DNA from: Escherichia phage TrudiGerster
Direction: 5' to 3' (one strand)
DNA length: 64,000 nucleotides
Sequence record: MZ501108
Shown: positions 9,343 through 64,000 of the stretch, in pieces
Position numbering within the stretch: position 1 is the first letter of the stretch
Layout: each line of letters opens with the position of its first letter
Made by a program: the position numbers and the translations under genes
The notes under the pieces: model-generated
The model's database searches: none
Seen by the model: only the letters and a program-made list of their open reading frames with translations
Told to the model about the DNA's origin: nothing

Positions 9343-10239
9343 ATGTACTACTCTCTAATGCGAGAGTCGAAAGTTATAGTTGAGTACGATGGCAGGGCGT
9401 ATCACTTTGACGCTCTGTCAAACTATGATATCAATACCTCCTACGAGGAATTTAAAACTCTTCGTAGGACTATTCATCGCAGAACCAACTATGCTGACTC
9501 TGTTATTAACGCACAAGCTCCATCATCAATATCGCTGGCTATAAATTTTAGTAATACCCTTACTGAGGCTAACTTCTTTGAATGGATGGGCTTTGATAGA
9601 GAGGGTACTACCTTCCTACTACCACTTTATAGCACGAATATTGAACCAACAATGTTTAATATCTACATAGTTAATAAAGATAATAACTGTGTATATTTTG
9701 AAAACTGTTTTGTATCTAACGTTGACTTCTCACTTGATAAGAATGTCCCTGTGCTGAATGTTGGTATTGAGTCTGGTAAGTTCTCTGAGGTATCCACGTA
9801 CACTCCTGCTGGTATTGTTCAAGGCGAGGTTATGTCTTACAGCCCTCCTAGAGTAGCTACAAACAGTAATATTTTACCTGCTCTTTTATCCGCTTCTATG
9901 TCCTTCCAGCAGCAATGCTCTTGGAGAGAAGATAAAAGCGTATTTGACATAAACAAAATATATAATAATAAAAGAGCTTATGTTAATGAGATGAATGCTT
10001 CGGCAACAATTGCGTTCTACTACACCAAGCGATTTGCTGGTGATATGTTCTACAATATTGAACCTGAGACTGATATCCCTTTAACTATACGAAATGAACA
10101 TATTTCGGTTGATTTCCCTTCAGCACGTATAACAAAACGCCTACAATTCTCGGATCTGTACAGGATTGAGTGGGATGTAATTCCTACTGCTGATTCTGAT
10201 CCGGTAAGAATCGACTTCTTTGGAGAAATAAAGAAATGA
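9343..10239 (+). CDS. tail structural protein (p140-like)
   Basis: 298 aa ORF between tail tube and chaperone genes. Confidence 0.45.
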   Translation: MYYSLMRESKVIVEYDGRAYHFDALSNYDINTSYEEFKTLRRTIHRRTNYADSVINAQAPSSISLAINFSNTLTEANFFEWMGFDREGTTFLLPLYSTNIEPTMFNIYIVNKDNNCVYFENCFVSNVDFSLDKNVPVLNVGIESGKFSEVSTYTPAGIVQGEVMSYSPPRVATNSNILPALLSASMSFQQQCSWREDKSVFDINKIYNNKRAYVNEMNASATIAFYYTKRFAGDMFYNIEPETDIPLTIRNEHISVDFPSARITKRLQFSDLYRIEWDVIPTADSDPVRIDFFGEIKK

Positions 10240-10640
10240 TTAACTTAAAAGATATTACCCTAGATACTCGCTCTGTTACGCTTTCCTACCCTGGTATGCC
10301 TAACTTTAAGCTTGAACTGAACTACATGTCTCGTGCTACCTCTAAGCGTGTTATTGCTTCTGCAAAACGTGATGAGTGGGTTAACGGTACACTGTTACAA
10401 GTTCAGGATGATGACAAGTTCATCGAAGCTTTCGTTGACTCTGCTATCAAAGGTTGGACTGGTCTGACTATTGGTGATGTTGAGAAGCTGATGCTGATTG
10501 AAACTGAAGCTGATCCATCTACCGAAGTTCCTTTTAGCCGCGATAATGCTGTGATGCTAATGCAGAACTCTGCTGCGTTTGATTCTTGGATCAACCAGAC
10601 AGTGTTCCACTTAGACACTTTTCGTAGCCCAAAAGCGTAA
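10236..10640 (+). CDS. tail assembly chaperone (upstream ORF)
   Basis: 134 aa acidic ORF immediately upstream of tape measure region. Confidence 0.5.
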   Translation: MINLKDITLDTRSVTLSYPGMPNFKLELNYMSRATSKRVIASAKRDEWVNGTLLQVQDDDKFIEAFVDSAIKGWTGLTIGDVEKLMLIETEADPSTEVPFSRDNAVMLMQNSAAFDSWINQTVFHLDTFRSPKA

Positions 10641-11153: not shown

Positions 11154-14100
11154 ACTGATAAGCTAATACGAGAACTACTGATAGACGTAAAGCAGAAAGG
11201 GGCAACCCGTACTGCTAAATCTATTGAAAATGTTTCCAATGCGTTAGAGGATGCTGCTGCCGCTTCTGAACTGACTAATGAACAGTTAGGAAAGATGCCC
11301 AAAACTCTTTATTCCATTGAGAGGGCGGCGGATAGAGCAGCAAAAAGTCTAACGAAGATGCAAGCAAACCGTGGTATGGCTAGTATAACTACTTCAATAA
11401 CAAAAATTGGAGATAAGTTAGATGACTTAGCACTAGCAATGCTAGATGTTGCAGATAAAATGGAAAGTGGTTTTGACCACGTTGGTAAATCTGTAAAGGC
11501 TATGGGCAATGACGTAGCTTCTGCAACTGAAAAAGTTCAAGATAGGTTATACGATACAAATAGAGCCTTAGCAGGTACCTCTAGAGGCTTTAATGATACC
11601 ACTACGGCAGCAGGACGCGCTAGCCGAGCAATCGGTAATACTTCTGGGTCAGCACGTGGCGCAACTCGTGACTTCGCAGCTATGGCTAAAGTAGGAGGTG
11701 GTTTACCTCTAATGTATGCTGCAATCGCATCTAACGTGTTCGTTCTGCAATCTGCTTTCGAACAACTGAAGATGGGTGACCAGTTAAACCGTCTAGAGAA
11801 GTTTGGTACTATAGTTGGTACTCAGACGGGTACTCCAGTACAGACGTTGGCTAGATCTCTACAAGAAGCTGCTGGTTATGCAATTTCTTTTGAAGAAGCA
11901 ATGAGACAGGCATCTTCTGCTTCTGCATATGGTTTTGATGCAGAACAACTTAATAAGTTCGGTCTAGTAGCTCGTCGTGCTGCTGCTGTTCTTGGTGTAG
12001 ATATGACTGATGCGCTTAACCGTGTAATCAAGGGTGTATCCAAACAAGAAATCGAACTTCTGGATGAGCTTGGTGTTACTATTCGTCTTAATGATGCCTT
12101 CGCTGATTACGTTAAACAGCTTAATGCTGCTAACACTGGTATTACATATAATATTAATAGCCTTTCTTCCTTCCAGAAGCAACAAGCATACGCTAACGCA
12201 GTAATCGCTGAATCTACTAAACGTTTCGGCTACCTGGACGACGTGCTTCGTGCAACTCCATGGGAACAGTTTGCTGCTAACGCTGATGCTGCCTTACGTA
12301 AGATTCAACAAGCTGCTGCTAAGTACCTTGGTCCAGTTATTGATTCTATTAACGCAGTATTCTATACTTCTCAAGCTTCTATCTCTGCAACTGCGGCTAG
12401 GGCACAGGAGCAGACAAACAAATCGATTGATCCTAGTAACGTGGGTGCTGTAGCTCTTGGGCTCGAGGCATCAGAAGCTGGGTACAATAAGGCTCTCGAT
12501 ATGTATAGAGAATCTCTAGATAAGCGTAATAAGTTAAAGGCTGATCTAGATAAACGTATGCAGCAAGCTGACTTCTTTACCACTGGTGCAATCCGCTCTG
12601 TGGCTCAAGGAGTTCCTTTAAGTGCTGCTGCATTGGGTGCTTCCGAGGAGAATAAGAAGTTTGTTGCTGATACCGCTGCAATGGCATTACAAGTAGAACG
12701 TCTTGATAAGGAAGTTGCTGACTCTACAGATAACTTAGGAGCCTGGAAATCTGCGTATCAAGCTGCTGGAGCGGCTGCTGCTAAGGCAAATCCTGAGTTC
12801 CAAAAACAAATTAATCTGCAGAAAGATGCTAATGATCCGAGTGCAGTTTACGACTTCAATTCTGAAACTCTAAAAGGATTAACGGAGCAGCAGAAAGCGT
12901 ACAACCAGACTAAGAAAACTGCTAGTGACTTAGCAAATGATATTCAGAACATTGCTCAAAATACTAACACTGCTGCTAAGACAAGTGCATCATTAGCTGA
13001 TACAATTAAGACTATTGAATCGCTATCAGCTGGTACTGGTAAGAATGCTGATGAGTATGTTAAGAGCCTGAACTTAGGTTATAATACTCTAAGTGAAATG
13101 AAAACTGCTTCCCAAGCACTTGCTGGGTACGTAAAACTAACTGGTGATGAAACTAAGAATCAGTTAGCTGTTCAGCAGAAGATTGCCGAAGTATACAACC
13201 AGACTAAGGACAAAGAAAAGGCTCAGGAAGCTGGTAGACGTCTGGAAGTTCAACAGCTAGAAGAACAGGAAGCCGCACTTAAGCGTGTACTGGAAACTAA
13301 CCAAGGTAATAAAGCAATTGAAAATGAGATTGCTAAAATCCAGTTAGAGAAGATCAAAATCGCTAACCAGAACATGGAAGCTCAGAAGAAGGTTAAGGAT
13401 TATACGGATAAGATCCTTGGTGTCGATCGTGAAATTGCTCTGCTTAACAACCGTACTATGACGGATACTCAATATAAGTTAGCTCAGTTGAATCTTGAAC
13501 TGACTATCGAGAAAGAGAAGTATGCGTGGTACTCTAAGCAGGTTGACAAACAGAAGGATGCTGAGCAATCAAGACGTGCTCAGGCACAGATTGAACGTGA
13601 AATCTGGAAGTTCCGTCAAGACCAGCAAATGGAAATGGCCAGTGGGCGCGAGAGAGCCTTAGGGATATCCCAAACCGAACGTAACGTTACTGGTGAATCT
13701 CAGCGTTTAACTGAACAGCAAGCTCTGTACCAAAGTCTACTGGAGATTACAAAAGGAAACGCACAAGCTCAGGAAGAGTATAAGCGTAAGATCCAAGAAA
13801 CTTCGGCAGCTCTAGCACAACTCAAGATGCAACGTGATGCTCAAATGCAGCAATCTGTTACTTCTTCTGTTGGTGGCACTTATACACCTACTACTGGACT
13901 GGAGGGTGATGATAAGGCCAATATGGATATGCAGAATAGAATGGCATCCTATGACCAGGCTATCTCTAAATTATCTGAGCTGAACTCTGAAGCAGCTGCA
14001 GTAGCACAAAGTATGGGTAATCTAACTAATGCTATGATTCAGTTCTCCCAAGGATCTCTGGATACCACATCTTTAGTAGCTGCTGGTATGCAAACTGTAT

Positions 14101-14831
14101 CTTCAATGATTCAGTATAGTGTTGGTCAACAGGTAAGTGCGATTGATCAGGCTATTGCGGCAGAACAGAAGCGTGATGGTAAATCAGAGGCATCTAAGGC
14201 TAAGATCAAGAAGTTAGAAGCTGAAAAGCTTAAGATCCAACAAGATGCAGCTAAGAAGCAAATCATCATCCAAACAGCAGTTGCAGTTATGCAGGCAGCT
14301 ACTGCAGTACCTTATCCATTCTCTATCCCATTAATGGTGGCGGCTGGATTGGCAGGTGCTATGGCATTAGCTCAGGCGTCTTCCGCATCTGGTATGTCTA
14401 GTATTGGAGACACGGGTGGAGACACTGCTAGTTATTTAACTCTTGGTGAGCGCCAGAAGAACGTTGATGTTTCTATGTCGGCTAATGCTGGTGAATTATC
14501 CTACGTGCGGGGTGATCAAGGTATCGGCAATGCCAACTCCTTTGTCCCTCGTGCAGAAGGTGGTAATATGTACCCAGGAGTTAGTTACCAGATGGGTGAA
14601 CATGGTACCGAGGTAATTACTCCTATGGTTCCCATGAAGGCTACTCCTGCTGATGAAGTTAAAGGCTCAGCTAGAGGATCATCTGGTAGACCTATTGTAC
14701 TGAACATCAATACAATGGATGCGGCGAGCTTCCGAGATTTTGCTTCGAGTAACAGTGCTGCGTTCAGGGATGCCGTGGAACAGGCTCTTAATGAGAATGG
14801 AACCACCCTGAAATCACTTGGTAATTCTTAA
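11151..14831 (+). CDS. tail tape measure protein
   Basis: 1226 aa, long alpha-helical/coiled-coil Ala/Gln/Lys-rich protein with C-terminal hydrophobic segment; position after chaperones. Confidence 0.88.
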   Translation: MTDKLIRELLIDVKQKGATRTAKSIENVSNALEDAAAASELTNEQLGKMPKTLYSIERAADRAAKSLTKMQANRGMASITTSITKIGDKLDDLALAMLDVADKMESGFDHVGKSVKAMGNDVASATEKVQDRLYDTNRALAGTSRGFNDTTTAAGRASRAIGNTSGSARGATRDFAAMAKVGGGLPLMYAAIASNVFVLQSAFEQLKMGDQLNRLEKFGTIVGTQTGTPVQTLARSLQEAAGYAISFEEAMRQASSASAYGFDAEQLNKFGLVARRAAAVLGVDMTDALNRVIKGVSKQEIELLDELGVTIRLNDAFADYVKQLNAANTGITYNINSLSSFQKQQAYANAVIAESTKRFGYLDDVLRATPWEQFAANADAALRKIQQAAAKYLGPVIDSINAVFYTSQASISATAARAQEQTNKSIDPSNVGAVALGLEASEAGYNKALDMYRESLDKRNKLKADLDKRMQQADFFTTGAIRSVAQGVPLSAAALGASEENKKFVADTAAMALQVERLDKEVADSTDNLGAWKSAYQAAGAAAAKANPEFQKQINLQKDANDPSAVYDFNSETLKGLTEQQKAYNQTKKTASDLANDIQNIAQNTNTAAKTSASLADTIKTIESLSAGTGKNADEYVKSLNLGYNTLSEMKTASQALAGYVKLTGDETKNQLAVQQKIAEVYNQTKDKEKAQEAGRRLEVQQLEEQEAALKRVLETNQGNKAIENEIAKIQLEKIKIANQNMEAQKKVKDYTDKILGVDREIALLNNRTMTDTQYKLAQLNLELTIEKEKYAWYSKQVDKQKDAEQSRRAQAQIEREIWKFRQDQQMEMASGRERALGISQTERNVTGESQRLTEQQALYQSLLEITKGNAQAQEEYKRKIQETSAALAQLKMQRDAQMQQSVTSSVGGTYTPTTGLEGDDKANMDMQNRMASYDQAISKLSELNSEAAAVAQSMGNLTNAMIQFSQGSLDTTSLVAAGMQTVSSMIQYSVGQQVSAIDQAIAAEQKRDGKSEASKAKIKKLEAEKLKIQQDAAKKQIIIQTAVAVMQAATAVPYPFSIPLMVAAGLAGAMALAQASSASGMSSIGDTGGDTASYLTLGERQKNVDVSMSANAGELSYVRGDQGIGNANSFVPRAEGGNMYPGVSYQMGEHGTEVITPMVPMKATPADEVKGSARGSSGRPIVLNINTMDAASFRDFASSNSAAFRDAVEQALNENGTTLKSLGNS

Positions 14832-14837
14832 TATTGG

Positions 14838-14866
14838 AGGAGGACTTTATGTCCTCCTTTTCTTTA
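14838..14866 (+). terminator. rho-independent terminator after tape measure gene
   Basis: hairpin aggaggac-tttat-gtcctcct followed by ttttcttt; then a diverged copy of the ggaaaaataaa element. Confidence 0.7.
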
Positions 14867-14884
14867 TGGAAAAATAAAAATTTC

Positions 14885-14913
14885 TTGATAAAATTTTCCA
14901 ATCCTATTATAAT
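14885..14913 (+). promoter_or_regulatory. sigma70-like promoter upstream of distal tail gene
   Basis: TTGATA - 17 nt - TATAAT, followed by AGAGGAG RBS and ATG at 14940. Confidence 0.55.
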
Positions 14914-14939
14914 ATTGTTATTAAGAGGAGAAATTAACT

Positions 14940-15554
14940 ATGAGACTACCAGACCCATACACGAACCCAGAGCTATCAGGGTTAGGTTTTGAAAGCGTTA
15001 ACTTAGTAGACAATGACCCTATGATTCGTGATGAATTACCTAATGGTAAAGTTAGGGAGGTTAAGGTGTCTGCTCAATATTGGGGTATTAATATCTCTTA
15101 TCCAGAATTATTCCCAGATGAGTTTGCAAAATTAGACTCATTTATACTTGACTATAAAAGAAAGGGTGATTATATTGATGTTCTACTACCTCAATATGAA
15201 GCTTTTAGAGTACGTGGTGATACTAGTGCTGTGAATATTCCAGCAGGTCAAAAAGGTTCCACTGTTATGATGGATACTAAAGGAACACTACGTGGGCTAC
15301 CAAAGCCAGGAGATTTATTTAAACTCTCCAATCATCCTAAAGTATATAAAATCACTTCTATCACTACAGCAGGCAACTCATGGCAACTGAGTATTTATCC
15401 TGATCTGTTCATTACTACTACAGGTAGTGAAAAGCCAGTATTCAATGGTATTTTATTCAGAACTAAGCTCATGAATGGGGATAGTTTTGGCTCTACGTTA
15501 AATAATAACGGTACTTATTCTGGTATTTCACTTTCCTTGAGGGAAAGTCTATGA
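14940..15554 (+). CDS. distal tail protein (pb9-like)
   Basis: 204 aa ORF following tape measure gene. Confidence 0.65.
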   Translation: MRLPDPYTNPELSGLGFESVNLVDNDPMIRDELPNGKVREVKVSAQYWGINISYPELFPDEFAKLDSFILDYKRKGDYIDVLLPQYEAFRVRGDTSAVNIPAGQKGSTVMMDTKGTLRGLPKPGDLFKLSNHPKVYKITSITTAGNSWQLSIYPDLFITTTGSEKPVFNGILFRTKLMNGDSFGSTLNNNGTYSGISLSLRESL

Positions 15555-18400
15555 AGAAAATTCTTGACACAGCTAGAGAGTATTTAAGATCACACAATAA
15601 AATAAAAACAGCGTGTCTTATTACTCTTGAGCTTCCTAGCTCTACTGGATCTAGTGCAGCTTACATATATCTAACTGATTATTTCAGAGATGTTATGTAT
15701 AATGGTATTCTATATACATCTGGTAAAGTTAAGTCTATTGCAACTCACAAACAAAACAGAGATCTTTCCATTGGTAGCCTTTCTTTTACTATTACGGGTA
15801 CAGCAGAGGATGAAGTTTTAAAACTCGTTCAAAATGGTGTATCCTTCCTAGATAGATCTATATCTATTCATCAAGCTGTTATTGATGAAGATGGTAACAT
15901 TCTTCCAGTAGATCCAGATACTAATGGTCCTTTATTATACTTCCGTGGTAAGATTACTGGTGGAGGTATTAAAGATAATATTGGTACTTCAGGCATCAGT
16001 ACCTCAGTAATTACATGGAATTGTTCAAACCAGTTCTATGACTTCGATAGAGTTAACGGTCGTTTTACTGATGATGCTGACCATCGCGGATTAGAAATTG
16101 TTGCTGGTCAATTAGTTCCTTCTAATGGTGCTAAGCGTCCAGAGTATCAAGAGGATTATGGTTTCTTCCACGCTAATAAGAGTATCTCTATTCTTGCTAA
16201 GTATCAGGTGCAGGAAGAGAGATATAAACTGCAATCCAAGAAGAAATTATTTGGTCTATCAAGAAGTTATAGTCTTAAGAAGTATTATGAGACTGTAACT
16301 AAAGAAGTTGATCTTGATTTCAACCTTGCAGCTAAATTCCTTCCAGTAGTATATGGAGTTCAGAAAGTTCCTGGTATTCCAGTGTTTGCAGATACTGAAC
16401 TACATAATCCAAATATTGTGTATGTAGTATACGCCTTTGCAGAAGGGGAGATTGACGGGTTCCTAGACTTCTACTTTGGCGACGTTCCTATGATTTGTGT
16501 TGATCCAAATGATAGTAAAAACCGTACATGTTTTGGTACTAAAAAGACTGCTGGTGATACAATCCAACGTATTGCTTCTGGATTGCCAGACTCTTCTCCT
16601 TCTATTCACGGACAGGAATATAAGTATAACGATGGTAATGGGGATATTAGGGTATGGACATTCCACGGTAAACCAGATCAAACCGCAGCAGATGTTTTAG
16701 TAAACATTGCTAAAGAAAAAGGTTTCTATCTCCAGAACATGAATGAGAATGGCCCTGAATATTGGGATTCTCGTTATAAACTTCTAGATACTGCGTATGC
16801 TATTGTTCGTTTTACTATTAACGAAAACAGAACAGAAATTCCTGAGGTTAGTGCTGAGCTTCAAGGTAAGAAGATTAAGATCTACCATTCTGATGGTAAA
16901 GTAACTGCTGATCGTACTAGTTTAAACGGTATTTGGCAGACTCTTGACTACCTGACTTCAGATCGTTATGGTGCTAATATTACTATTGACCAGTTTCCAC
17001 TAAAACAACTAATTCAAGAGGCTGCTATTTTAGATATCATTGATGAGTCATATCAAGTATCTTGGCAACCTTATTGGAGATACGTTGGATGGACAGATGC
17101 AATAGGTGAACATCGTCAGATAGTACAGATGAACACTATTTTAGATACTTCTGAATCTGTGTTTAAAAACGTACAAGGTTTATTAGAATCTTTTGGTGGT
17201 GCGATAAATAACCTGTCAGGACAGTATCGTATAACTGTTGAAAAGTACTCCAATACTCCATTAGAGATTAACTTTATGGATACTTATGGGGACTTAGAGT
17301 TGTCTGATACAACTGGTAGGAATAAGTTTAACTCTGTTCAGGCCTCTATCCTAGACCCTGCATTAAGTTGGAAAACCAACTCTATCACATTCTTTAACTC
17401 TATATTTAAAGAGCAGGATAAAGGATTAGATAAAAAGCTGCAACTATCCTTTGCAAACATTACTAACTACTACACTGCACGTAGTTTTGCTGATAGAGAA
17501 CTTAAAAAGTCTCGTTACTCTCGAACTCTATCTTTCTCTCTACCATACCATTTCATTGGTATTGAACCTAACGATCCAATAGCATTTACTTATGACCGTT
17601 ATGGGTGGAATAAGAAATACTTCCTAGTAGACGAGGTTGAGAACTCAAGAGAAGGCAAGATTAATATTACTCTACAAGAGTACGGAGAAGATGTATTTAT
17701 TAACTCCGAGCAGGTAGATAACAGTGGTAATGATATTCCTGATGTAAGTAATAACGTTCTGCCTCCAAGAGATTTTATTTATACGCCAACTCCTGGCGGT
17801 ACTGTTGGAGCTATAGGTAAGAATGGTGAGTTATCTTGGCTTCCAAGTCTTACAAATAACGTTGTTTATTATTCTATTGTTCATTCTGGCCATGCAGAAC
17901 CGTATATCGTTCAGCAGTTAGAATCTAATCCAAATCTACGAATGATTCAAGAAATCATAGGAGAACCTGCTGGTTTAGCAGTATTTGAGATTAGAGCAGT
18001 AGATATAAATGGTAGAAGAAGTTCTCCAGTAACTTTATCTGTAGAGCTTAATTCTGCTAAAAACTTAAGCGTTGTTAGTAACTTTAGGGTAACTAATACA
18101 GCTTCAGGAGATGCATCGGAATTTGTAGGGCCAGATGTTAAATTGGCCTGGGATAGGATTCCAGAAGAGGACATTATTGATGGTATCTACTATACTCTCG
18201 AAATCTACGATAATCTAGATCGTTTATTAAGAAGTGTACGTATTGAGGATCAATATGTTTATGATTATCTACTGATATACAATAAGGCAGACTATGCTTT
18301 GCTAAATGAAGATGCTCTTGGTATTAACAGGAAATTACGTTTCCGAATTAGAGCAGAAGGTGATAATGGCGAGCAATCTGTGGATTGGGCATCTATTTAA
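15551..18400 (+). CDS. baseplate hub / tail tip protein (pb3-like)
   Basis: 949 aa ORF, overlapping stop/start with flanking tail genes. Confidence 0.7.
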   Translation: MKKILDTAREYLRSHNKIKTACLITLELPSSTGSSAAYIYLTDYFRDVMYNGILYTSGKVKSIATHKQNRDLSIGSLSFTITGTAEDEVLKLVQNGVSFLDRSISIHQAVIDEDGNILPVDPDTNGPLLYFRGKITGGGIKDNIGTSGISTSVITWNCSNQFYDFDRVNGRFTDDADHRGLEIVAGQLVPSNGAKRPEYQEDYGFFHANKSISILAKYQVQEERYKLQSKKKLFGLSRSYSLKKYYETVTKEVDLDFNLAAKFLPVVYGVQKVPGIPVFADTELHNPNIVYVVYAFAEGEIDGFLDFYFGDVPMICVDPNDSKNRTCFGTKKTAGDTIQRIASGLPDSSPSIHGQEYKYNDGNGDIRVWTFHGKPDQTAADVLVNIAKEKGFYLQNMNENGPEYWDSRYKLLDTAYAIVRFTINENRTEIPEVSAELQGKKIKIYHSDGKVTADRTSLNGIWQTLDYLTSDRYGANITIDQFPLKQLIQEAAILDIIDESYQVSWQPYWRYVGWTDAIGEHRQIVQMNTILDTSESVFKNVQGLLESFGGAINNLSGQYRITVEKYSNTPLEINFMDTYGDLELSDTTGRNKFNSVQASILDPALSWKTNSITFFNSIFKEQDKGLDKKLQLSFANITNYYTARSFADRELKKSRYSRTLSFSLPYHFIGIEPNDPIAFTYDRYGWNKKYFLVDEVENSREGKINITLQEYGEDVFINSEQVDNSGNDIPDVSNNVLPPRDFIYTPTPGGTVGAIGKNGELSWLPSLTNNVVYYSIVHSGHAEPYIVQQLESNPNLRMIQEIIGEPAGLAVFEIRAVDINGRRSSPVTLSVELNSAKNLSVVSNFRVTNTASGDASEFVGPDVKLAWDRIPEEDIIDGIYYTLEIYDNLDRLLRSVRIEDQYVYDYLLIYNKADYALLNEDALGINRKLRFRIRAEGDNGEQSVDWASI

Positions 18401-31591: not shown

Positions 31592-32365
31592 TTAGTCGTC
31601 CAGATCGCTAGCAGCTTCTGCATCGATACCTTTCTGGGAACCAGCTTCGGAACCACCCTTAGCATCGCCACCTTCCTGCTTCTCACGTCCTTCCATGAAG
31701 GCATCTACTGCTTCTTTCTGTTCTTCGTAAGACGGAACCGGATAGGTTTCTTCCAGAGAAGGAACTTTCTCGAACTTCAGGAAATCGCCATTTTCATCGC
31801 TCAGTGCTTCACCGAGGATATCTACATCAGCAGCGTGTAACTTAGACTCAGCACTGTTAGGATCTTTCAGTTTCATCTGGAACTGCATTGCTGCAATCTG
31901 TTGTACATCGTACTCAGTTTCGAAGCCTTTACCTTTCTTCTCGATAGAGATATCGATATCGAACGGATCGGATAGTTCAAGCTGTTTCATGATAGACTTG
32001 ATGCCTTTCAGGATAGTAGCTTTAACTTCCATTACTTTCAGTTTGTTATCAGAACGGTCGATAACGAAAGCGATGTAGTTCTTCTTAGGTTTCAGCGGAA
32101 CACGATTACCCTCTTTGTCCAGATCTTTCTCGAAGAAGCCCATTTCATGGATCGGGTCAGCTTTACCACGAACAAAGCTCTCTTTAGTACGGTTGAAACG
32201 CAGGCACTCAAACGGAGCTGCATTACCATCTTTGTTAGTCAGCCAGTAGACATAACGCGGAAGAACACCAGAAACGATACGAACACGAGTGATACCGTTG
32301 TTGAATTTCAGGAAGTCGATTTTATCGTTAGAACCGCCAGTAGTTTCGCCCCAAGACTTAGCCAT
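31592..32365 (-). CDS. putative ssDNA-binding protein
   Basis: 257 aa, biased high-expression codons, acidic C-terminal tail (DAEAASDLDD) typical of SSBs; assignment tentative. Confidence 0.5.
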   Translation of the reverse strand: MAKSWGETTGGSNDKIDFLKFNNGITRVRIVSGVLPRYVYWLTNKDGNAAPFECLRFNRTKESFVRGKADPIHEMGFFEKDLDKEGNRVPLKPKKNYIAFVIDRSDNKLKVMEVKATILKGIKSIMKQLELSDPFDIDISIEKKGKGFETEYDVQQIAAMQFQMKLKDPNSAESKLHAADVDILGEALSDENGDFLKFEKVPSLEETYPVPSYEEQKEAVDAFMEGREKQEGGDAKGGSEAGSQKGIDAEAASDLDD

Positions 32366-39773: not shown

Positions 39774-40541
39774 TTATTCAGCAGCCGCAGCTTTTGCATC
39801 CAGTTTAGCACGCTTAGCAGCACCATCATAGTCCTTAGCAACCAGACCACGACGAGACAGCATAGATTTAACACCGCGCTCAGACTTACCAGTTTTCTCA
39901 GCGATATCAGCAACAGTCATGTTAGCCAGATCCAGACCTTCTAACAGATCTTCGCGAGTTTTAGCGCTTGAAGTTTCCTGTACCGGCATTGCAGCGATAC
40001 GACCTTCACGAAGCAGGCTCAGAGCTTTACCACGGATCTGCTTGATATTGCGACCGAAGTGAGCAGCGATAGCTTCAATAGTTGCACCAGCAACAACCTG
40101 ATTAACGAAATCAGTTTCTTCGTCAGGAGTGAAGGAACGAACGGCAGCAGCTTTTTCAGTTGGCTTAACAGCAGCAGTCATTTCCAGACTCAGAATCTTA
40201 CCCTGTACCTGCTTAGCACCGAACTGACCACCAGCTACAGCAGCAGCGATTTCAGCGTAGGTATACTGACCAGCATGAGAGTTCAGGAAATCAACCAGTT
40301 CAGCTTCCTGCTCAGGAGTCCACGGGGATTTCTGTACTTCGTTAGCTTTCTGTACTTCGAAGCCTTCTTTACGCAGCTTAGAACCAACAGAGCGGGCGGT
40401 TACGTCCTTGCCAGTTTCAGCAGCCAGTTCTACAGCGATAGCAGCAACTTGTTCTTGAGAGATTACAGCTACACCCAGAGCAACGGCTTTAGCTTTCAGA
40501 GACTCGGTTACACCTTCTACGTTCCAGTTCAGTTTAGACAT
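39774..40541 (-). CDS. abundant DNA-binding-like protein with four tandem ~50-aa helical repeats
   Basis: 255 aa; repeated motif T(V/Y)xEIAxxxGxxxxx(V/I)xxKxLSLxxxG; very strong high-expression codon bias. Confidence 0.5.
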   Translation of the reverse strand: MSKLNWNVEGVTESLKAKAVALGVAVISQEQVAAIAVELAAETGKDVTARSVGSKLRKEGFEVQKANEVQKSPWTPEQEAELVDFLNSHAGQYTYAEIAAAVAGGQFGAKQVQGKILSLEMTAAVKPTEKAAAVRSFTPDEETDFVNQVVAGATIEAIAAHFGRNIKQIRGKALSLLREGRIAAMPVQETSSAKTREDLLEGLDLANMTVADIAEKTGKSERGVKSMLSRRGLVAKDYDGAAKRAKLDAKAAAAE

Positions 40542-43463: not shown

Positions 43464-43874
43464 TTATTTAGTGATAGCTCGGACAGCTTCTGCCAGATGA
43501 GCAGCTGCTTTACCAGTCAGCTTGTCGATAATCGCTGAATCCAGGAAGTCTGGAGCCAGACCTGCATCAGAGAATGCAGACAGAAGATCGGCATGAGCCT
43601 GAGCTTTAGAAGTACGAGAACCGCCAGAAGCTTTTTCTCCAGTAGATGCAGTTGATTTGGAAGCAGAGCCAGCAGCTTTCTTGATATACAGACCCGCTTT
43701 AGTCAACTTCATACGGAAGCCGTTCGGAGTTACACCGTTTTCCTGAGCGATTTCGCTAACAATTTCCATGCTAACGCCCGGACGCTCATCTTCTGGGAAT
43801 TGCTCCATACGAGCAACGTAATCGGAAGACATTTTTTCGAACAGTTCATCAGTCCACTGAGTTGGAGTAGTCAT
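43464..43874 (-). CDS. putative DNA-binding protein (same helical motif family as 39774-40541)
   Basis: 136 aa; SMEIVSEIAQENGVTPNGFRMKLTKAGL motif; Ser/Ala/Gly-rich linker; biased codons. Confidence 0.45.
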   Translation of the reverse strand: MTTPTQWTDELFEKMSSDYVARMEQFPEDERPGVSMEIVSEIAQENGVTPNGFRMKLTKAGLYIKKAAGSASKSTASTGEKASGGSRTSKAQAHADLLSAFSDAGLAPDFLDSAIIDKLTGKAAAHLAEAVRAITK

Positions 43875-60698: not shown

Positions 60699-61052
60699 AT
60701 GTTAATTATACTATTATTTGTAATATTCTTTCTAAAACATTTTATGGCCGATTATCCTCTCCAAACACCATATATGCTAAGAAAGACTCATAAAATAGGG
60801 TGGAAACTTCCATTATTAACCCATTCTCTAGTACATGCTGTATTAACATTTGCAATTCTAATTCTATTCACATCACTAGGGATGGCTATAGCTTTAGCTA
60901 TTATGGAATTAATTTTACACTTTATTATAGATTATTGGAAAGCACAACGCTGTAAGTACGCTATAAGCGATGCTAAGTTTTGGATAGCTTTAGGATTTGA
61001 TCAGTTACTGCACTATCTGACATACGCCTTAATAATCTTGATTATAATCTAA
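60699..61052 (+). CDS. hypothetical multi-pass membrane protein
   Basis: 117 aa with three hydrophobic segments. Confidence 0.45.
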   Translation: MLIILLFVIFFLKHFMADYPLQTPYMLRKTHKIGWKLPLLTHSLVHAVLTFAILILFTSLGMAIALAIMELILHFIIDYWKAQRCKYAISDAKFWIALGFDQLLHYLTYALIILIII

Positions 61053-61399: not shown

Positions 61400-61668
61400 T
61401 GTCTATTCTTTTATCTGCTTTAGAAGCAAAACAAAATACTATTGCTGTTATTAAACAGGAAGTAATTGACCTAGAATCACTTATTGCCGTAGAGATTGAT
61501 AAAGCAATCAAAGAAAAAGAATTTAACTGCCATATTCAGGGATTAACTGAATATTCAGAAAACGCCAGAAACAGCGTTATGCAACGACTTACTAAACTAG
61601 GCTATATCGTAGAGGCTAAGTATGAGCAGCGTGAAGGTTTTTGGCTTGAAATTGACTGGAGCAAATAA
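61399..61668 (+). CDS. hypothetical protein
   Basis: 89 aa; ATG overlaps upstream stop. Confidence 0.4.
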   Translation: MSILLSALEAKQNTIAVIKQEVIDLESLIAVEIDKAIKEKEFNCHIQGLTEYSENARNSVMQRLTKLGYIVEAKYEQREGFWLEIDWSK

Positions 61669-62144
61669 TGTCGGTTTTCCACATATATACAGATGGTGCA
61701 TGTAAAGGTAATCCTGGGTTAGGCGCTTGGGGTTTTGTAGTATATGATCCTACTGATGAACGTTTAGGTTCTAAATCCGGTTTTAATCCAAAAACCACAA
61801 ATAATGAGATGGAACTCACAGCTATTGTTGAAGTTCTACGTTGGGCTACTAAAAATGATAAGCGCCCAGCTATGATCTACACTGACTCTACATACTGTAA
61901 AAATGGCATGGAAAGCTGGGTTTTCTCCTGGCAGAAAAAAGGCTGGAAGAAAGCCGATGGAGAAGCCCCTCTTAACCTAGAGTTGTGGAAAGAAGCATTC
62001 TCATTACTACAAAAATACATAAACTTCCACGACACCACACCGACCTTCGTTAAAGTCAAGGGGCACTCAGGTGGTCCTAGAAATGACGAAGTAGACGCTC
62101 TATGTAATACAGTTATAACAGAGCAAGAGTTAGCTGAGATGTAA
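61668..62144 (+). CDS. rnh: ribonuclease H
   Basis: 158 aa; RNase HI motifs (IYTDGACKGNPGLGAWG, TNNEMEL, YTDS, HSGGPRNDEVD). Confidence 0.85.
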   Translation: MSVFHIYTDGACKGNPGLGAWGFVVYDPTDERLGSKSGFNPKTTNNEMELTAIVEVLRWATKNDKRPAMIYTDSTYCKNGMESWVFSWQKKGWKKADGEAPLNLELWKEAFSLLQKYINFHDTTPTFVKVKGHSGGPRNDEVDALCNTVITEQELAEM

Positions 62145-62164
62145 TAAATAAATTAAAAATTCAG

Positions 62165-62193
62165 TTGCTTAAAGCCCTCGATTTTAGTATAAT
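62165..62193 (+). promoter_or_regulatory. early promoter
   Basis: TTGCTT - 17 nt - TATAAT, then GAGGAGGG RBS; promoter flanked by inverted repeat aagccctc/gagggctt. Confidence 0.6.
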
Positions 62194-62220
62194 ATTCATA
62201 TTGAAAGTGAGGAGGGCTTT

Positions 62221-62499
62221 ATGCGAATTTATAACTCAAATTCATTAGGTTTCAAACCATTGAGAAAACGTGCACAATCTCCGCGTCAGATCAGAAAGGC
62301 TAATATCGGAGAACCAGAAACGCGTCTTCCGCCACCTCCTGAACAACGTTTAGTTTATCTAGACGAGGAATTGGCAGAACGTGAACGTAAAGCTCAAGAA
62401 GAAATTGAGCGTAAGAAGATGTGTACTGCTCCGGCATATAATAAAGGTGCATATCAATACGTTTCTGATGAAGAACAAGCTAAGATGGTCGGCAGATAA
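62221..62499 (+). CDS. hypothetical protein
   Basis: 92 aa charged protein with own promoter. Confidence 0.45.
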   Translation: MRIYNSNSLGFKPLRKRAQSPRQIRKANIGEPETRLPPPPEQRLVYLDEELAERERKAQEEIERKKMCTAPAYNKGAYQYVSDEEQAKMVGR

Positions 62500-62515
62500 T
62501 TTTTAAAAAATTCAT

Positions 62516-62544
62516 TTGCTAAACGCTTCAAAATCTCGTATAAT
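62516..62544 (+). promoter_or_regulatory. early promoter (TCATTTGCT-type)
   Basis: TTGCTA - 17 nt - TATAAT preceded by TTCATT, then AAGGAAA RBS. Confidence 0.6.
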
Positions 62545-62582
62545 ATACTTCATAAATTGATCAACAAAAAGGAAAATAAATA

Positions 62583-63098
62583 ATGGCTAAGCAGAAAAAC
62601 GCAAAAACTCAGGCAGCTCCAGCAGTTAAGACTTTCCCGCAGACCGAAGCTAATCGTAAGGCTCGTCTGGAACGTCATCTGCGTAAGCATCCTGAAGATG
62701 TTCAGGCTGCACAAGCTCTGGGTCGTCCGGCTCCTGTTCGTCAGAAACCGAAGGCTAAAAACTCAACCCGAGCTGTAGCTAAACAGGTTGTGTTCATCAA
62801 AGGTGAAGGCCACAAGTCTGTACCTGTAACCCTGGGCTTCAACGGTGGAGCTGAAATGTTCTCCCGTAAGGACATGTCCCCGAAAGAGTACGAAAAAGCA
62901 GTTAATCAGAAACGTAAGCCAATGGCCGACGTATTCCGTGAAACTCGCGGCCAGTTCGGCTCTGTTAAACCGAATATCTTCGGTGTAGAGTATAGCCGTG
63001 ACAACGTTCGCGCTCTGTGCTACGGCATTGGCATCAAGTTCACTGGTGCTTCTGATCGTAAATCCGCTAAACCGGCTCGTAAGCGTAAAGCGAAGTAA
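62583..63098 (+). CDS. highly basic, codon-optimised small protein of unknown function
   Basis: 171 aa, Lys/Arg-rich at both ends (C-terminal KSAKPARKRKAK), codon usage dominated by cgt/ctg/ccg/ggt; own promoter. Confidence 0.55.
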   Translation: MAKQKNAKTQAAPAVKTFPQTEANRKARLERHLRKHPEDVQAAQALGRPAPVRQKPKAKNSTRAVAKQVVFIKGEGHKSVPVTLGFNGGAEMFSRKDMSPKEYEKAVNQKRKPMADVFRETRGQFGSVKPNIFGVEYSRDNVRALCYGIGIKFTGASDRKSAKPARKRKAK

Positions 63099-63104
63099 TG
63101 ATTG

Positions 63105-63122
63105 ATGGGGCGAAAGCCCCAT
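63105..63122 (+). repeat. GNRA-tetraloop hairpin containing ggggcgaaagcccc (copy 1)
   Basis: stem ggggc/gcccc closed by GAAA loop; same 14-mer recurs at 63644-63657; no U-tract. Confidence 0.6.
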
Positions 63123-63156
63123 ATACTAACTCTCTTTCTAACTAAGGATATTTTTT

Positions 63157-63372
63157 ATGTTCTCTAAGAAACCACGTTCCGTTACTGAAATCGTTGCTTC
63201 CTTTACCACAATTACTGACGAACTTCAAGCTCGTATTGATGCTGATCAGAAAACCGCTGCTGAAATTCAGAAACAGCAGGAAGAACTTGCTCTGAAATTG
63301 GCTGAAACCAATAAGAGCGAAAAATCTGCTCAAACTATTAAGGAAAACATCCTTAAACTGCTGGGTAAGTAA
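63157..63372 (+). CDS. hypothetical coiled-coil protein
   Basis: 71 aa ORF. Confidence 0.4.
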   Translation: MFSKKPRSVTEIVASFTTITDELQARIDADQKTAAEIQKQQEELALKLAETNKSEKSAQTIKENILKLLGK

Positions 63373-63373
63373 T

Positions 63374-63634
63374 ATGAGACATAATAACTCACGTATTATG
63401 TCTGGTATGCTTCAACGACTATTTAACGATGGAGCGGTGAGGGCTTATCGGACAGACATTACCAATATTTGGAAACTAGAGTTTAGGTTATCAGATGATT
63501 CCGAAGCCATAAACAACCGTACCTTTACTTGGTATGAATTTGAAGATGAAGTTCAGCAGTTTAGCGAGGGTTACTTTGTAACACCTGGAGAAGCTCAGGC
63601 TGCCCTAGAGCACTACTGTAGGACTTATCTCTGA
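63374..63634 (+). CDS. hypothetical protein
   Basis: 86 aa ORF; ATG overlaps upstream stop. Confidence 0.4.
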   Translation: MRHNNSRIMSGMLQRLFNDGAVRAYRTDITNIWKLEFRLSDDSEAINNRTFTWYEFEDEVQQFSEGYFVTPGEAQAALEHYCRTYL

Positions 63635-63641
63635 TATACTA

Positions 63642-63659
63642 GGGGGCGAAAGCCCCTCT
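63642..63659 (+). repeat. GNRA-tetraloop hairpin containing ggggcgaaagcccc (copy 2)
   Basis: identical 14-mer core to 63107-63120. Confidence 0.6.
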
Positions 63660-63673
63660 CATTTGGAGAAACT

Positions 63674-63889
63674 ATGCGTAACTTCGTTGCAAAGAATGAT
63701 TTTAACCGTGCTAGCACTCATAAGTCTGCTAGAGATTATACTCGTCTTTCTAAACATGAGCTTCTAGAAGAAATCATGGAAGAAAACTGGGATGTTAATG
63801 AAAATGGAACAGACCTGTTTGAAGAAGAAGAAATTCCCTTGAAAGACCCCAAGCAGTGGGAGTCTAACAAAGAGACCACTCTTTGTTAG
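63674..63889 (+). CDS. hypothetical acidic protein
   Basis: 71 aa ORF. Confidence 0.4.
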   Translation: MRNFVAKNDFNRASTHKSARDYTRLSKHELLEEIMEENWDVNENGTDLFEEEEIPLKDPKQWESNKETTLC

Positions 63890-63913
63890 TTTTCTACACA
63901 ATAAGGATAAGTT

Positions 63914-64000
63914 ATGAAAGTAAAACCATTTGGTATGCTGGACATTGAATCCCTAGGGACTCCAGATAACTGTGGAACAACCCATATCGCAATGCCGTCT
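63914..64000 (+). CDS. partial ORF (3'-truncated by window edge)
   Basis: begins MKVKPFGMLDIESLG; the DIES segment is reminiscent of DEDD exonuclease motif I but too short to call. Confidence 0.25.
   Translation, partial: MKVKPFGMLDIESLGTPDNCGTTHIAMPS

Follow-up and report, generated by a model that had tools for sequence, protein, structure and literature searches.

A short uS15-like motif in a highly basic early protein of T5-like phages and in a modular family of phage proteins

The closest described relative of the gene considered here is T5.089 of phage T5, and the only functional datum found for its family is the 'Fit' call that T5.089 received in a CRISPRi-ART knock-down screen as one of 17 such genes among 162 T5 coding sequences (four guides, mean fitness -2.21, p 0.0496), its neighbours T5.088 and T5.090 being scored 'Not Fit' and the authors placing it among genes 'of entirely unknown function' (Nat Microbiol 2025, PMC11879866 supplement). 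The orthologous gene bas27_0069 lies in the 64,000-nucleotide stretch of Escherichia phage TrudiGerster (sequence record MZ501108) that was analysed here and is called the window throughout. The N-terminal module of its product belongs to a modular protein family and carries a short motif that resembles the rRNA-reading loop of ribosomal protein uS15; the interpretation favoured here, tentatively, is that bas27_0069/T5.089 encodes an abundant non-virion early protein that acts by binding nucleic acid, most probably structured RNA or the ribosome, these being the likeliest targets because the module carries the uS15-like signature. The role proposed is of the kind known from PhiKZ gp014, a small, early and abundant phage protein that Gerovac and colleagues are said to have reported in 2024 to bind host ribosomes; ribosome binding would be the corresponding activity of the T5-like protein, and sequence kinship between the two is not expected. 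Phage genes that resemble translation proteins, such as those for bS21 and bL12, may bias host ribosomes (PMC6375957); these encode recognisable full-length homologues, whereas the protein described here would be at most a partial mimic, and the text of that survey of viral genes for ribosomal proteins (Mizuno et al. 2019) contains no mention of S15.

The open reading frame (ORF) starts with ATG and encodes 171 amino acids (aa; 19.0 kDa) that are 100% identical to bas27_0069 of TrudiGerster, which is BASEL phage Bas27 (Demerecviridae, Epseptimavirus). A genuine gene is indicated by orthologues across T5-like phages and by the ratio of nonsynonymous to synonymous substitution rates against them (dN/dS), which places the protein under purifying selection; its codon usage is summarised by the codon adaptation index (CAI).

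62583..63098, plus strand: coding sequence bas27_0069, T5.089 orthologue, Pfam DUF7022, PHROG 4516; dN/dS 0.06-0.14; CAI 0.629.

The product shares 80.9% aa identity and equal length with T5.089 (AY543070 45503-45973), and the gene order around both genes is kept (thy-rnh-T5.090-T5.089-T5.088/metallopeptidase); on identity, gene order and promoter, bas27_0069 is a true orthologue of T5.089, and nothing substantive differs between the two in length, neighbours (rnh and T5.090 on one side, T5.088 and the metallopeptidase on the other) or promoter. The match to DUF7022 (PF22887) is full length (262.2 bits against a cut-off of 27, residues 1-169 on profile positions 1-166), as is that to PHROG 4516 (E 2.7e-95 over residues 1-171), and by these profiles the protein is a full member of both. 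Homology to a known family, a result that the first-pass annotation of the window had set against its own proposal, is thus formally present, in two families that are both without an assigned function. Relatives were found by tblastn in 528 phage records and, among the matches listed or tallied by name, all are T5-like, the hosts of T5-like phages with a DUF7022 gene including Salmonella, Escherichia, Klebsiella, Pectobacterium, Erwinia and Enterobacter; both Tequintavirus and Epseptimavirus, Bas27 included, retain the gene at 81-93% aa identity.

The protein has the highest isoelectric point (pI) of the 67 ORFs in the window, 10.77, with a net charge of +26 (40 Lys and Arg against 14 Asp and Glu); every segment of it is positively charged and its C-terminal end is SDRKSAKPARKRKAK, in agreement with the first-pass description of a highly basic, Lys/Arg-rich protein with a basic C-terminus. 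The same description had mentioned no recognisable catalytic motif, and none was found, DUF7022 being the sole significant Pfam match. In an alignment of 21 DUF7022 members, the following parts can be distinguished.

62583..62780, plus strand: N-terminal module, aa 1-66, with a basic arm, helix 19-35, HPxD loop, helix 40-45 and an extended PxRxKPKxK segment.
62655..62720, plus strand: uS15-like motif, aa 25-46, RKARLERHLRKHPEDVQAAQAL, containing His32, His36 and Asp39.
62781..62927, plus strand: variable middle, aa 67-115, missing from the 130-138-aa Klebsiella-phage versions.
62928..63050, plus strand: conserved C-terminal domain, aa 116-156, FGSVKPNIFGVEYSRDNVRALCYGIGIKFTG, found only in full-length Demerecviridae-type members.
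63051..63095, plus strand: Lys/Arg-rich C-terminal tail, aa 157-171, net charge +7.

Invariant residues of the N-terminal part (aa 1-60) are T21, E22, A23, N24, R25, R28, H32, H36, D39, Q41, A45, R53 and K55, and those of the C-terminal domain, which has no Pfam match besides DUF7022, are F125, G126, P130, N131, F133, G134, Y137, R143, A144, C146 and I151. The AlphaFold2 (AF2) model of the full-length protein is poor (predicted local distance difference test, pLDDT, 66; predicted template modelling score, pTM, 0.26), with a confident helix-loop-helix at residues 22-46 and little else; the N-terminal module, modelled from an 80-sequence alignment, reaches a pLDDT of 81.5, and more than 90 for residues 21-50, the predicted helices (19-35 and 40-45) being joined by the loop HPED and followed by extended chain. 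Composition and models support the view of a basic and mostly non-globular protein, as a nucleic-acid binder would be. A Foldseek search of the PDB with the full-length model gave nothing at E <0.5, and the profile search of PDB sequences found no solved structure of a relative; the only matches of the full-length profile in that search, to triosephosphate isomerase, were set aside as chance, and a helix-hairpin-helix (HhH) reading of 'ALCYGIGIKF' was dropped, there being no Pfam HhH match.

The resemblance to uS15 emerges from the module. When 80 N-terminal modules were scanned against Pfam, 22 matched PF00312 (Ribosomal_S15), with a best E of 3.4e-4, the next family, a zinc finger, being matched by 5 of the 80; the module profile gave 15 matches among PDB sequences at E up to 10, eight of which are chloroplast or archaeal uS15 chains (RALRIRKHLEEHPKDMASRRGL being one example). 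With the confident N-terminal model as query, Foldseek returned 19 PDB matches, at least 12 of which are identifiable uS15 chains of bacterial, archaeal and eukaryotic ribosomes, at 18-31% identity over 26-32 columns and with a root-mean-square deviation of 0.5-1.0 A for those of 26-27 columns; three uS15 matches had also appeared in an earlier full-length search. Aligned by hhalign with 84 S15 sequences (80 S15 genes from genome contigs served in place of near-identical enterobacterial homologues, which are unfit as a diverse profile), module residues 25-39 fall on S15 residues 35-49 with P 0.011, a score equalled by 2 of 300 column shuffles. The columns common to module and S15 are L(-3), H(0), a hydrophobic residue (+1), K(+2), H(+4), D(+7), small residues (+10, +13) and L(+14), conserved in both families at 100% for H(0) and D(+7), about 70% for K(+2) and 80% for H(+4). 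In the 80-sequence alignment His32 and Asp39 are invariant; His36 is invariant among T5-like full-length proteins and is His in 80% of all modules. The first 18 positions of what we take to be the S15 signature, PROSITE PS00362 ([LIVM]-x2-H-[LIVMFY]-x5-D-x2-[SAGN]-x3-[LF]-x9-[LIVM]-x2-[FY]), are present in the window protein (L29..L46) and in 78 of 167 modules, compared with 1 of 33,400 shuffles, and the core L-x2-H-h-x5-D in 159 of the 167; the full pattern occurs in none of these modules, as against all 84 S15 sequences. The likeness is thus an 18-25-residue helix-loop-helix signature, L-x2-H-h-K-x-H-x2-D-x2-[AS]-x2-[AG]-L, with the same His-Asp spacing and the same local backbone, in two proteins that are small, basic and, to judge by the expression signals of the phage gene, highly expressed.

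Taken together, Pfam, PDB profiles, Foldseek and hhalign are overlapping lines that weakly single out uS15 and no other family. Matches to C2H2 zinc fingers (BCL11A, CTCF, zf-H2C2) rest only on an L-x-R-H-x-K-x-H string, in a module without cysteines, and were rejected; a match to Leishmania DLP1 (E 0.0066, 41% identity over 27 aa), a single eukaryotic axonemal protein, was taken as chance. S15 itself is a stoichiometric component of the 30S subunit, bound at the junction of helices 20/21/22 of 16S rRNA. Its His and Asp in the helix2-loop-helix3 region read a G-U/G-C minor-groove motif in helix 22 of 16S rRNA, a contact reportedly seen in the S15-rRNA crystal structures of Nikulin and of Agalarov, both of 2000; the S15 residues that match the module motif are presumably His41, Asp48 and Ser51 in E. 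coli numbering. The most conserved element of the DUF7022 module resembles, and may work like, this rRNA-reading loop, descent and convergence being indistinguishable here. The suggestion in the first-pass annotation that the protein may bind ribosomes gains specific support from this motif, the binding itself being what the motif would predict.

Several observations weigh against a target in RNA or the ribosome. The window protein alone gives no S15 match in Pfam at E up to 10; each S15 match is weak (E 0.1-10 in the PDB searches, below the Pfam gathering score), spans only some 15-30 residues and is not independent of the others, all being driven by one common motif, and the module has neither the second half of the S15 signature nor the counterparts of S15 helices 1 and 4 and its long helix 3. 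The relatives, too, score below the S15 gathering score of 31 bits (P0051, for example, reaches 16.6 bits), and with neither that score nor the four-helix fold of about 89 aa, the DUF7022 protein is not a member of the S15 family and not an S15 orthologue. In vitro, so basic a protein would bind to DNA no less readily than to RNA. Moreover, S15 is already on mature ribosomes and T5 destroys host DNA early, leaving little new ribosome assembly to join, so that a ribosomal target is not an obvious one. The CRISPRi-ART call for T5.089, with its four guides and a p value just under 0.05, is itself marginal.

Binding to double-stranded DNA is the main rival, and a serious one, though we regard it as rather doubtful: the protein would be histone-like or architectural, coating or compacting replicating phage DNA, or would be an accessory to replication, transcription or packaging, and the S15-like motif would be a convergent helix-loop-helix placed on DNA. 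The extreme basicity with evenly spread positive charge, the position of the gene among replication and nucleotide-metabolism genes, a high-expression design like that of the D5-like DNA-binding gene, and the local and statistically modest nature of the S15 resemblance are all consistent with it. However, searches of Pfam (E up to 10), PDB profiles and Foldseek gave no match to HU/IHF, H-NS or Fis, the first two of these searches none to helix-turn-helix (HTH) or HhH domains either, and the sole recognisable motif comes from an RNA-binding protein. Phage SPO1 offers the precedent of TF1, an abundant early nucleic-acid-binding protein of a virulent phage and an HU homologue; the HU fold is not found in the DUF7022 protein. 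T5-like phages, moreover, already make an abundant double-stranded-DNA-binding protein, D5 (PMC10644984). D5 is, like the protein proposed here, a very abundant early nucleic-acid binder, and the D5-like gene of the window has the same codon bias, but it has HTH/sigma-r4-like domains and a near-neutral pI of 6.8, whereas DUF7022 is without such a fold.

The module is shared by many small phage proteins. A hidden Markov model search of 1.84 billion representative proteins gave 142 matches, most at profile positions 1-70 only; about 10 are full length, and more than 100 are small (60-170 aa) basic proteins that have only the N-terminal 60-70 residues in common, with the consensus MAKK...Y..YK......NR..RLERHLKKHPND.QA..AL.....RKKP..KG. 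The C-terminal tails of the module proteins are of several mutually unrelated types, and the presence of unrelated tails on one module points to the N-terminal part as an ancient, portable unit. This modular family and the S15-like motif are what is new here; the gene, its promoter and its importance to T5 were already known. Tails recognised as recurrent by simple motif search are W...A..L...G-L-N-G-N (14 matches, about 12 of them genuine), GHPV(L) (12) and KGNFP...D..G (16), to which the T5-type FGSVKPNIFG...GIGIKFTG can be added, most of the remaining tails being unclassified. A relationship of the 'LGxNG' tails in other subfamilies to the T5-type C-terminal domain was considered and dropped, hhalign giving no alignment, and two matches, P0048 (1061 aa, ten repeats of which match the C-terminal profile) and the zinc-finger protein P0068, were judged spurious on inspection of their sequences.

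Members with genomic context lie on contigs of large virulent phages, among nucleotide-metabolism and early genes. Cultured phages of Vibrio (one match in a phage of about 128 kb), Proteus, Aeromonas and Providencia carry the module as well, and a weak match (E 3e-3) was obtained in the Acinetobacter jumbo phage ME3. An 85-aa member from a distant, T5-like phage of metagenomic origin keeps the T5 order nrdB-DHFR-ThyA...RNaseH-small ORF-DUF7022 and lies (10001-10258) 1.6 kb upstream of an array of 11 tRNAs (11867-16590) in the same orientation. The T5 orthologue is found about 4 kb upstream of 'RNAX', an annotated stable RNA, and presumably upstream of the T5 tRNA region as well; this proximity may reflect the layout of the early region only. 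An Rfam scan of the whole 64-kb window found no family at its gathering score, which puts the tRNA/stable-RNA region of TrudiGerster outside the window.

One conserved module with several unrelated tails also suits a common anchor with lineage-specific effectors, as would be expected if the protein were a regulator or hub that binds other proteins, for instance by sequestering host RNA polymerase, a nuclease or some other acidic protein of the host, with the His/Asp motif serving protein contacts or metal and the S15 similarity being coincidental. This we consider unlikely. A largely disordered protein is typical of hub or inhibitor proteins, and small T5 proteins are known to modify RNA polymerase (PMC7472727); nevertheless, a full-text search for 'T5.089' came back empty, which means that this RNA polymerase-binding study does not name T5.089 in its main text, and one member in five (20%) has Y, F or N in place of His36, which speaks against a strict H-x3-H metal site. 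More generally, full-text searches of papers found neither 'T5.089' nor 'DUF7022', and two transposon-essentiality preprints do not cover T5-like phages.

The expression signals of bas27_0069 point to a gene of the early region built for high output, as the first-pass annotation had stated. Its CAI ranks fifth among the 67 ORFs of the window, below the capsid gene (0.712), the D5-like gene (0.711) and ORF 31592-32365 (0.646); 72% of its codons are strongly favoured and 5% rare, compared with 77% and 4% in the capsid gene, 76% and 3% in the D5-like gene, and 38-49% and 22-28% in the flanking rnh, thyA, T5.090-like and 86-aa ORFs. The capsid-like usage and the contrast with the neighbours that had been claimed are thus real, and only the wording that the gene uses almost exclusively optimal codons is a slight overstatement. 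The regulatory elements are as follows.

62500..62515, plus strand: A/T-rich tract TTTTTAAAAAATTCAT, abutting the -35 hexamer and invariant in five T5-like phages; a possible UP-like element.
62516..62544, plus strand: sigma-70 promoter with -35 TTGCTA, 17-nt spacer and -10 TATAAT, orthologous to the T5 early promoter P-H207.
62570..62573, plus strand: Shine-Dalgarno AGGA, 9 nt before the ATG, in an A-rich unstructured leader; invariant across orthologues.
63105..63122, plus strand: 3' hairpin UGGGGC-GAAA-GCCCCA, 7 nt past the stop codon, with a GNRA loop and no U-tract.

The two hexamers (62516-62521 and 62539-62544) match the consensus at 10 of 12 positions and form the top site within 61600-64000, as expected from the first-pass claim of an own consensus promoter with a 17-nt spacer and TATAAT. 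The site coincides by alignment (97% identity) with the feature 'promoter P-H 207' that precedes T5.089 in the T5 record AY543070; on that alignment it is the Bas27 version of P-H207 and, because it is annotated there, it is not a new find. Promoter and leader are 97% identical across Bas27, T5, SH9, JLBYU40 and Kenya-K36, the -35, spacer, -10 and A/T tract being invariant save for two or three spacer or leader positions. The region 62490-62582 is therefore more conserved than the coding sequence, whose dS between genera is 0.5-1.1, which indicates strong selection on the regulatory sequence itself. In the 1980s Gentz, Bujard and Deuschle reportedly characterised P-H207 as one of the strong early promoters of T5. 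Ph207 also serves as a core promoter in a 2018 promoter library (PMC6146998). Promoter and codon usage together suggest very high expression of bas27_0069.

Past the stop codon, the 3' hairpin has a minimum free energy of -13.8 kcal/mol (z -3.4) and a stem that is invariant in T5, SH9 and JLBYU40; no intrinsic terminator was called there. Its exact 14-mer GGGGCGAAAGCCCC occurs twice in the window, at 63107-63120 and 63643-63656 (both on the plus strand), against 0 expected, each copy lying 8-9 nt past a stop codon; in early operons of T5-like phages it may be a characteristic element that forms the 3' end of transcripts or stabilises them. Just downstream, the 71-aa ORF 63157-63372 (plus strand; PHROG 2380, CAI 0.55, 70% favoured codons, predicted coiled-coil-like sequence) may be co-expressed with bas27_0069; several GenBank records call it a 'tail (length) tape measure protein', a label that is impossible for an early-region product of 71 aa. 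Capsid-like codon bias is also seen in three further non-structural ORFs, all on the minus strand: 39774-40541 (CAI 0.71), which is D5-like with sigma-70 region 4/HTH matches, 31592-32365 (0.65) and 43464-43874 (0.61), the latter two having no Pfam match, and the 'SSB' label of the first-pass annotation for one of them was not confirmed.

The window is oriented in reverse to the T5 record AY543070, with late genes on the plus strand in its first 26 kb, replication genes on the minus strand and an early nrd-frd-thy-rnh block on the plus strand. Upstream of bas27_0069 lie thyA, two small ORFs, rnh and a T5.090-like ORF, and downstream are small uncharacterised ORFs. Directly after thyA, the 117-aa ORF 60699-61052 (plus strand) is very hydrophobic, has the lowest CAI of the window (0.12) and is a probable small membrane protein.

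A place in the virion, as a structural or packaged internal protein, can hardly be credited. It would fit the capsid-like codon usage and the GenBank/UniProt labels 'virion structural protein' and 'structural protein'; the labels of orthologues conflict, however, the same protein being also called 'swarming motility protein' or 'hypothetical protein', no experimental basis for any of them and no supporting paper was found, and they look automatic. The gene lies in the early region behind an early promoter, and the DUF7022 protein is not among the 18 proteins identified by tandem mass spectrometry in BF23 virions (PMC10644984 Table 1), the literature on which its exclusion from the virion rests; the AKFV33 proteome lists only 4 proteins.

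A very improbable alternative is that of a shield against restriction or nucleases, in which the insensitivity of T5 to restriction would come from a coat of this protein on phage DNA as it enters or replicates. The protein is basic and probably abundant, and a DNA-binding protector has been proposed for T5 (Davison 2015, as cited in PMC10644984). Restriction insensitivity is, however, a trait of Tequintavirus and not of Epseptimavirus (PMC10644984); the gene is kept in both genera, so that its presence does not track the phenotype, and it is an early, not a pre-early, gene; no PADLOC or other search aimed at anti-defence genes enters into this argument. The overall interpretation in the first-pass annotation is partly supported: the nucleic-acid binder, above all in its RNA or ribosome option, gains support, and the shielding of phage DNA from nucleases does not.

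If the favoured reading, nucleic-acid binding directed at structured RNA or the ribosome, is correct, host sigma-70 RNA polymerase would transcribe bas27_0069 from P-H207 and efficient translation would follow, giving a 19-kDa, largely unfolded protein with 26 net positive charges. The N-terminal module would offer a basic helix, the HPxD loop and a short second helix in a copy of the helix2-loop-helix3 signature of uS15, and would dock on an RNA helix of rRNA or the ribosome, or of phage tRNA, stable RNA or mRNA. The Lys/Arg/Pro arms that flank the module would curl around the backbone, like the extensions of ribosomal proteins, and the Demerecviridae-specific C-terminal domain might add a lineage-specific contact or oligomerisation. 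A bolder version, and something of a long shot, is that DUF7022 proteins are partial uS15 mimics, the module sitting on the S15 site of 16S rRNA (the G-U/G-C motif of helix 22) or on an S15-type RNA operator while lineage-specific tails reprogram ribosomes or the fate of RNA for the phage; an effect on translation would then be expected.

T5 has long served as a model phage, and phages related to it are frequent in collections for therapy and biocontrol. Among the early genes that it probably expresses most strongly, one whose promoter biotechnologists have used for decades and whose knock-down is among the few that hurt the phage has had no assigned function. The uS15-like motif turns this 'hypothetical protein' into a specific hypothesis, RNA or ribosome binding that depends on His32 and Asp39, and the modular family ties T5.089 to more than a hundred small basic proteins of uncultivated large phages. 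Should the link to RNA or the ribosome fail, the protein would still be an abundant nucleic-acid binder worth characterising. Should the family consist of partial uS15 mimics, T5-like and some jumbo phages would encode widespread, so far unrecognised translation-directed early proteins, the first S15-type viral derivatives of a ribosomal protein; and if the link to RNA or the ribosome holds, it would constitute a new phage route to the takeover of translation.

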